A DNA stretch of 64,000 nucleotides from IMG/VR virus record IMGVR_UViG_3300004481_000333, positions 21,414-85,413 of that record. One strand, given 5' to 3'. Position 1 is the stretch's first letter. Each line of letters begins with the position of its first letter. The notes below the pieces were generated by a model that did not search any database, was not told the DNA's origin, and was given only the letters and a program-made list of their open reading frames with translations. The stretch comes from a virus. Below are positions 1,027 to 1,207 of this stretch, piece by piece. The position numbers and the translations under genes are program-made.

Positions 1027-1207
1027 GTCAGGACAGCTGAAAGGATGCGGAGGAAGTGGAGCATGACCATCACGCACGCACGGGCCCGGGACATTCTGGT
1101 CGCTGTGGGCAACAGGATGCAGAGGAAGTGGAGCCGATCGAGCGCGGTCCTGCGGGTCACTTCACCTCGGCGTCGCTGTGGGCAACAGGATGCAGAGGAA
1201 GTGGAGC
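1027..1207. CRISPR. mini CRISPR array A: 3 repeats of 36 bp, 2 spacers (36, 37 bp), no adjacent cas
   Basis: Identical GTCGCTGTGGGCAACAGGATGCAGAGGAAGTGGAGC at 1099-1134 and 1172-1207; degenerate copy 1027-1062 keeps GTC start and the last 21 nt with 1 mismatch; period 72-73. Confidence 0.8.

Follow-up and report, generated by a model that had tools for sequence, protein, structure and literature searches.

Array A and its relatives

The DNA analyzed here is a 64-kb window, bases 21,414-85,413 of the IMG/VR record IMGVR_UViG_3300004481_000333 (G000), a linear sequence of 85,413 bp with a CheckV completeness estimate of 78%. At positions 1027-1207 of the window it carries a short CRISPR array, called array A below. 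A gene for a T4-type large terminase (14753-16093) identifies the source as a tailed phage, and genes for DnaB and an AAA ATPase are found upstream of the window. Array A lies on the plus strand behind three features of the same orientation, i.e., the gene of a 603-amino-acid (aa) Cas12f-like protein, the effector (P0001; G000:C1:19849-21660, or window -1564..247, so that its 3′ end occupies window positions 1-247), a gene for a 245-aa protein, the partner (213-950), and a leader (951-1026). The effector gene ends approximately 780 nt upstream of the array.

A direct-repeat search returned three 36-nt copies with start-to-start spacings of 72 and 73 nt. Repeat 2 (1099-1134), taken as the reference, and repeat 3 (1172-1207) are identical. 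Repeat 1 (1027-1062) is identical to the reference at 25 of 36 positions (69%); of its sequence, 31% has thus diverged, and the divergence is unevenly distributed, the 3′ 20 nt (1043-1062) matching at 19 of 20 positions and the 5′ 16 nt at only 6 of 16. Spacer 1 (1063-1098) is 36 nt long with a guanine-plus-cytosine (GC) content of 64%, and spacer 2 (1135-1171) is 37 nt long with 70% GC. Within the 64-kb window, the full repeat has two sites at up to 3 mismatches, a number reached in none of 100 dinucleotide shuffles, and its 3′ 20-mer, GGATGCRGAGGAAGTGGAGC, has three sites for 0.01 expected, also a number reached in 0/100 shuffles. These analyses bear out a first-pass annotation of this DNA, which had described two perfect repeats and one half-degenerate one with unique spacers of 36 and 37 bp. 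It had also likened spacer 1 to a gene start, and this spacer does begin with ATG and reads MTITHARARDIL. By themselves, the repeats folded no better than shuffled sequences.

Since the window has a GC content of approximately 61%, long spurious open reading frames (ORFs) are frequent on both strands. Three small ORFs of 79-129 aa cross the array, at 1045-1284 and 1056-1325 on the plus strand and at 882-1271 on the minus strand, and the same annotation had regarded them as spurious, naming a conserved translated ORF with the duplication in frame as the alternative to an array. We found no such ORF. The periods of 72 and 73 nt break the frame, so that repeats 2 and 3 fall in different frames of one ORF (VAVGNRMQRKWS vs RRCGQQDAEEVE), and the relatives described below have entirely different spacers at this place, with periods of 70-75 nt. 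The small ORFs are thus spurious. With three near-identical direct repeats in the 23-55-nt range separated by unique spacers of similar length, array A has the generic makeup of a CRISPR array, and we conclude that it is a true CRISPR mini-array carried by a phage.

Protein-pattern scans identified two viral loci (L007 and L008) that belong to related phages, G001 (106,685 bp, with terminal repeats, 100% complete) and G002 (105,770 bp), respectively, and one metagenome scan yielded four further effector homologues (L015 to L018; 25-34% identity, 34% for L015). The linkage of the effector family to arrays rests on seven loci. In both viral loci the effector gene is followed by an ORF of approximately 243 aa and by a same-strand array. 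In L015 and L016, an ORF of 219-221 aa separates the effector gene from a same-strand downstream array, and for L017 and L018 the effector gene and such an array are all that is displayed. Array size varies, with 2 repeats in L015, where the downstream repeat ends in ...AGTGGAGC, 23 in L016, 2 in L018 and an irregular array in L017. G001 and G002 share the repeat GTCGGAACGGAGAACAGGATGCGGAGGCAGTGGAGC, present in 22 copies across the record junction; its 3′ 24 nt are like those of the array A repeat bar two changes, and its 5′ part differs. Relative to G001, the G002 array has one extra spacer at the leader- and cas-proximal end, and the last repeat of G001 retains only its 5′ 19 nt. An array read from the cas side should show just such a polarity. 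The two phages thus have the same repeat family with other spacers and polarized turnover.

The leader contains a box, CGCTCGCA, at 974-981 that is invariant across the four aligned leaders (G000, G001, L015 and L016), and a repeat-like block at 996-1013. The first-pass annotation had read the latter as an eroded repeat remnant. The sequence, GTAGCAGGATCGTGGAGG, is indeed there, on the plus strand, but it is a conserved leader block (CAGGATCGTGGAGGTYCTAGC is common to G000 and G001) rather than a decayed repeat unit, as it stands only 13 nt before the next repeat. We also considered that the block might introduce a conserved "guide 0" (1014-1042) directed at the phage's own promoter; at other sites of G000 and G001 it matches over 11 nt at best, and the idea was set aside for now. 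No sigma-70-like promoter was detected between positions 1 and 2000 of the window.

The effector, its partner and a predicted tracr-like RNA

P0001 gave a sub-threshold match to PF07282, the Cas12f1-like TNB domain (E=0.0024), and matched AsCas12f directly (7wju, E=2.8e-5). The profile of its family (137 sequences) aligned end to end with AsCas12f (8j1j) at E=2.4e-71. An AlphaFold2 (AF2) model of P0001, with a predicted local distance difference test score (pLDDT) of 88.7, a predicted template modeling score of 0.82 and residues 1-50 disordered, had as its best Foldseek match AsCas12f 8j12 (E=5.1e-21, template modeling score 0.67); SpCas12f1 (9i8y), OsCas12f (9nzq), CnCas12f1 and a solved dCas12f (9n9c, E=8.8e-14) were the other top matches. 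A word-based search with P0001 returned only three relatives, at 60, 54 and 35% identity. By profile search, 551 of 1.84 billion representative proteins were found at E<=0.001, 93 of them at E<=1e-30, and PF07282 was detected in 24 of the 34 family members scanned. A protein-pattern scan for close relatives in a prokaryote genome collection gave 41 candidate stretches, none of which was confirmed. The G000 record holds no second cas12f-like gene, and Cas1 (PF01867) is absent from G000, G001 and G002. A weak second match of the zinc-ribbon region of the family profile (E=2e-4) was noted inside a 310-aa ORF of the related phages (G001:C1:67923-68222 and G002:C1:37372-37671).

The part of the effector gene that falls at window positions 1-247 includes a CxxC...CxxC zinc ribbon and the RuvC-III aspartate (D550). 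For a count of catalytic residues across the family, we took the best 150 of the 551 matches together with P0001, P0003 and P0004. Exclusion of 16 proteins of less than 400 aa left 137. The RuvC-I column is the position aligned to the RuvC-I aspartate of AsCas12f. An acidic residue (D or E) occupies this column in 0/137 proteins, the residue being His in 74, Arg in 42, Cys in 5 and another in 16. The RuvC-II glutamate is present in 106/137 and the RuvC-III aspartate in 113/137, and the zinc-ribbon cysteines (C522, C525, C540 and C543 in P0001) are kept in 134-137 of the 137. In P0001 the catalytic positions read C361/N472/D550, so that the intact RuvC D-E-D triad of type V-F is lacking; in the two proteins nearest to it, RuvC-I is Cys and RuvC-II is Ser or Ala. 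As judged from the alignment, two of the three acidic residues are gone in the subclade of P0001, with the second position not conserved, and the canonical two-metal site is lost. We infer from this a loss of all cleavage by the effector; the altered site favors binding or repression over cutting.

The partner is predicted to be all-helical with a long C-terminal coiled coil (AF2 pLDDT of 84.8, helix 166-227). Homologues occupy the same place in L007 (67% identity), L015 (30%, BLASTP E=1e-14) and L016 (27%). No Pfam family beyond coiled-coil noise and no Foldseek match at E<=0.001 was found for it, and its VIA-align rows were dominated by single long helices (Z<=6.9). Pfam, Foldseek and VIA-align indicated neither a nuclease family or fold nor a helix-turn-helix (HTH). 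Immediately before the effector gene lies a 52-aa ORF (G000:C1:19687-19845; L006:7688-7846) that looks HTH-like by eye and has no significant Pfam family.

Within the 5′ end of the effector ORF of G000, we found an anti-repeat split into CTCCACT at 19906-19912 and CCTCTGCATCC at 19969-19979. Nucleotides 17-27 of the repeat (GGATGCAGAGG) are the exact complement of positions +120..+130 of the ORF, and nucleotides 29-35 (AGTGGAG) are the complement of +57..+63. Both helices are present in G001, where an A>G change in the repeat is absorbed as one G-U pair. In L015, the 34%-identical homologue, the middle of the repeat differs (CTGGTGCAGG), +123 is changed to CCTGCACCAG, and CTCCACTC stays at +51. 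L016 has an 8-bp helix 54 nt before its shorter effector ORF. As read from the alignment, a tracr-like block (after trans-activating CRISPR RNA, tracrRNA) of approximately 150 nt is approximately 95% identical between G000 and G001, whereas the flanking coding sequence is approximately 65% identical. Folding of the three aligned sequences predicted 32 pairs, 8 of which have compensatory changes. In silico, G000, G001 and L015 thus each have an anti-repeat of the type V-F kind at a matching position, and it covaries with the repeat.

The pairing positions, 17-35, are exactly the part kept in repeat 1 (1043-1062), which explains the half-degenerate copy. It also argues that the array is transcribed from the plus strand and that, as in type V, the guide follows the repeat handle on its 3′ side. 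A complete third repeat should then also give a guide, from 1208 onward. The unique sequence that follows it, at 1208-1244 on the plus strand, runs into a GC-rich hairpin at 1233-1263 and is a candidate third guide; no partial repeat was found after repeat 3 (best local alignment, 6 nt). By the repeat-then-spacer logic of type V CRISPR RNAs, its use as a guide is likely.

Targets, known systems and rival readings

The first-pass annotation had proposed searching the spacers and the trailing sequence against viral and host sequences and deriving a protospacer-adjacent motif (PAM) from the matches. We searched GenBank phages and plasmids, as well as IMG/VR with 24-mers, and obtained neither a target nor, as a consequence, a PAM. 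The window segment 1027-1250 had no match among GenBank phages and three chance matches among plasmids (E=0.7), the whole arrays of G001 and L016 had none in either, and the 5′ 24-mers of spacer 1 and spacer 2 each occurred 0 times in IMG/VR. Spacers of array A, of a second array of the window (array B), of G001, G002, L015 and L016 gave self matches only when compared with G000, rejoined G001 and the other loci of the set; other matches of spacer 1 in G000 and G001 did not exceed 11 nt. The 3′ part of the repeat (21-mer) was also sought in 185,579 prokaryote species, each represented by one genome. It gave 21 single, taxonomically scattered matches and 0 arrays, so that no host CRISPR with the array A repeat was found in this collection-wide test. 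The only IMG/VR match of the repeat 20-mer (L004) falls in coding sequence of a phage with low GC content, has no array around it and was taken as chance.

We propose, with a probability of about 0.7, that array A is the own CRISPR array of a phage-encoded, compact, type V-F-derived system that most likely binds DNA without cutting it. The proposal starts from observed properties of the locus, i.e., the array, the Cas12f fold, the conserved synteny, the covariation of repeat and anti-repeat, and the substituted catalytic positions. A plus-strand operon would begin with the tracrRNA-like element, at the 5′ end of the ORF that encodes the effector, and continue with the effector, the partner, the leader and the repeat-spacer units, and we infer that it would be transcribed and processed. 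The 3′ 20 nt of each repeat would pair with the split anti-repeat, and each repeat would yield one guide from the spacer 3′ of it, with 1063-1098 and 1135-1171 as certain guides and a likely third one from 1208. As only the 3′ part of the repeat would be needed, the first repeat could lose its 5′ half. With the RuvC-I aspartate (C361) and the RuvC-II glutamate (N472) gone, the complex would most likely bind its DNA targets without cleavage, and bound targets would be silenced or marked, possibly via the partner protein.

Several points weigh against this proposal. The loss of cleavage is read from sequence alone; in most of the family, the RuvC-II Glu (106/137) and RuvC-III Asp (113/137) are kept beside His or Arg at RuvC-I, and in passages of their report Altae-Tran et al. 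(PMC10691335) term such a RuvC site "noncanonical," not dead. Protospacers were found for 0 of the approximately 50 spacers examined. None of the RNA sequencing runs contained the locus, so that transcription, strand and processing are predictions from the DNA; in the single DNA sequencing run with the locus (share 0.07), three contigs of 186-243 nt fall on the effector gene and on the stretch that precedes its start, and 0 cover the array. Other 10-12-bp helices with the repeat occur in the genome, and the 11-bp anti-repeat helix is not unique. As a single helix is not rare, the argument for the anti-repeat draws on its two parts, its conserved place and its covariation, seen in few loci. Other cas genes could sit in the missing part of the 78%-complete record. 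Lastly, the array could be a shrinking remnant, with 3 repeats for 22 in its relatives and a decayed first repeat.

The system shares with type V-F Cas12f (AsCas12f 8j12/8j1j/7wju, SpCas12f1 9i8y and OsCas12f 9nzq) its fold, domain order and 36-nt repeats, a separate predicted RNA whose anti-repeat is split by stem-loops, and a zinc ribbon placed before RuvC-III. It differs in that the RuvC-I Asp is absent from 137/137 family members and the RuvC-II Glu also from P0001, in the conserved 220-245-aa partner between effector and array, in its carriage by phages, and in the position of the anti-repeat, which falls at the 5′ end of the ORF for the effector or inside it. P0001 is approximately 180 aa longer than AsCas12f. 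The family is probably V-U24, a CRISPR-linked Cas12 branch that Altae-Tran et al. (PNAS 2023, PMC10691335) described as having a noncanonical RuvC-I site and being associated with an HTH protein whose function is unknown; this comparison is by description only. The altered RuvC-I site and the array fit this description, and the conserved partner and the 52-aa HTH-like ORF upstream of the effector may fit it as well. A noncanonical RuvC-I site in a CRISPR-linked Cas12 branch is indeed what the effector family has; as for the HTH protein, a conserved partner is present with no HTH shown, and the 52-aa ORF, HTH-like by eye only, could be the protein linked to V-U24 in print. The main-text passages of that article (PMC10691335) report no function, RNA or phage link for V-U24.

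dCas12f proteins are likewise derived from Cas12f and predicted not to cut, and one of them, 9n9c, is a structural match of P0001 (E=8.8e-14). As described in the text of Hoffmann et al. (2026, PMC13472631), they have C-terminal truncations that remove part of the RuvC site. Unlike dCas12f-sigmaE, P0001 keeps its C-terminus, zinc ribbon and RuvC-III Asp, aligning to the end of AsCas12f, and is altered at RuvC-I; the family profile is far weaker against 9n9c (2.8e-19) than against AsCas12f (2.4e-71). A sigma-70-family gene (PF04542), as the rpoE (sigma-E) gene next to dCas12f-sigmaE would be, was found in 0/3 phage records (G000, G001 and G002) and in 10/14 control genomes. The same text (PMC13472631) mentions one putative dead Cas12f cluster near CRISPR arrays with guides sometimes at promoters, suggesting repression.

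Type V-M Cas12m binds DNA and blocks transcription and is found on plasmids and some prophages (PMC11656645). The present system resembles it in its compact effector of approximately 600 aa, its mobile element, its array, the lack of adaptation genes and the proposed binding without cleavage. The similarity is only distant, Cas12m2 matching at E=5.8e-5 vs 2.4e-71 for AsCas12f. Cas12m is not known to need a tracrRNA. An altered RuvC site is likewise found in V-M, V-K, dCas12f and TldR regulators. A phage Cas12m with an intact triad, as presented in 10.64898/2026.09.14.751636, belongs to a different family.

Among the alternatives, the least improbable is that the same phage-encoded system is still an interference nuclease, its noncanonical site cutting or nicking or its partner being destructive, so that the guides would destroy competing phages or plasmids. 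The retention of D550 and the zinc ribbon in P0001 and of the RuvC-II Glu in most of the family, along with the turnover of the relatives' arrays at the leader end, as in immune arrays, speaks for this possibility. We consider it unlikely nonetheless, given that no family member has an acidic residue at RuvC-I, that RuvC-II is N, S or A in the subclade, and that the partner has no nuclease family or fold. That array A has shrunk from approximately 22 units to 3 and is out of use is a less probable explanation again. It would account for the 31% divergence of the first repeat and the loss of a second catalytic residue in P0001. Against it, the ORFs of effector and partner are uninterrupted, repeats 2 and 3 do not differ, repeat 1 has diverged precisely where it does not pair with the anti-repeat, and the tracr-like block is approximately 95% conserved.

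The first-pass annotation had taken the array to be cas-less, its guides being loaded by host Cas to exclude related phages or repress host genes. Cas-less viral mini-arrays, as summarized in PMC11656645 from Medvedeva 2019 and Faure 2019, have repeats identical to those of the host CRISPR and spacers against related viruses and rely on host Cas. Array A is like them in being very short, with 2-3 spacers (PMC11656645), and in lying in a viral genome, and no Cas1 is encoded in G000. However, the virus has its own effector: a Cas12f-fold gene lies upstream, gene, partner and array travel together, and the anti-repeat beside the array covaries with it. The 3′ part of the repeat forms no array among the 185,579 species, and no spacer matches G001, G002 or the phage itself, so that neither a host array with this repeat nor a related-virus target was found. 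We thus consider loading by host Cas very improbable and do not retain the claim; the functions that this annotation suggested, competition between phages or repression of host genes, may still apply. Hardly credible is that array A is either a translated duplication kept in frame or an RNA anti-CRISPR, i.e., a decoy of the repeat. Repeat units carried by phages are able to serve as decoys (PMC11656645), and small ORFs do overlap the array; but a solitary repeat is not what is found here, the three repeats being separated by spacers of regular length next to a co-encoded effector with no host repeat found, and the periods of 72 and 73 nt break the frame in a region where relatives do not conserve the spacers.

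Array A could be a fixed set of three regulatory guides, not an immune memory, with the non-cutting Cas12f and its partner forming a programmable transcription regulator directed against host or rival genes, although we regard this as doubtful. The initial ATG of spacer 1 is what a guide placed across the beginning of a gene would have, and the shrinkage of the array would have spared just those parts of the repeat on which the tracrRNA depends. If so, the same machine would be seen in its "immune" state in the relatives, with their 22 spacers.

An apparent cas-less viral mini-array is thus better read as the array of a hidden miniature effector, which corrects a tempting misreading. The locus adds a clean example to a phage-borne Cas12f branch without the RuvC-I aspartate that travels with a partner protein, a family with 551 representatives at E<=0.001. 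As far as published main text goes, this branch appears in print only in passing. A 603-aa protein, a defined tracr-like RNA and two or three guides make up a small, complete unit. It might serve the phage in silencing host defense, silencing rivals or regulating itself, and such units might be of use as compact programmable DNA binders.

Further features of the window and its relatives

Array A is followed by a 284-nt non-coding stretch (1208-1491) that folds far better than shuffles (z of -4.4 on the plus strand and -5.5 on the minus strand). It contains two terminator-like hairpins on the minus strand, at 1263-1233 and 1416-1386, and is without counterpart in G001, where a gene starts directly after the truncated last repeat. 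Shortly after the module, a gene for a DUF488 protein occupies 3148-3675 on the minus strand (PF04343, E=1.4e-9).

Array B, at 63835-64000 on the minus strand, consists of three copies of a different 36-38-nt repeat with periods of 73 and 71 nt and is ended by the contig end. Read on the minus strand, its repeat starts with GT... and ends in ...TTGGAGG, like the repeats of the effector family. It has no occurrence in IMG/VR, G001 or G002. The 85-kb record holds no convincing anti-repeat for it; by our own reading, the tracr-like RNA of array A pairs with it over only approximately 6+6 nt. The effector or helper RNA of array B may lie in the missing part of the record. A second, unrelated array of three repeats (36 nt, periods of 72 and 71 nt) was also seen upstream of the effector gene in L015 (L015:206-384), beside the downstream array, and two arrays per locus may be common in this effector family.

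Analysis of the window with Rfam at gathering thresholds gave 0 families, and 0 tRNAs were found. A tandem repeat of 132 nt is present in 4.6 copies with 90% matches at 60317-60927. Long repeats with a 9-nt period, of the Gly-X-Y type, at 41755-42136 and 56319-59564 encode collagen-like proteins that are probably tail fibers.

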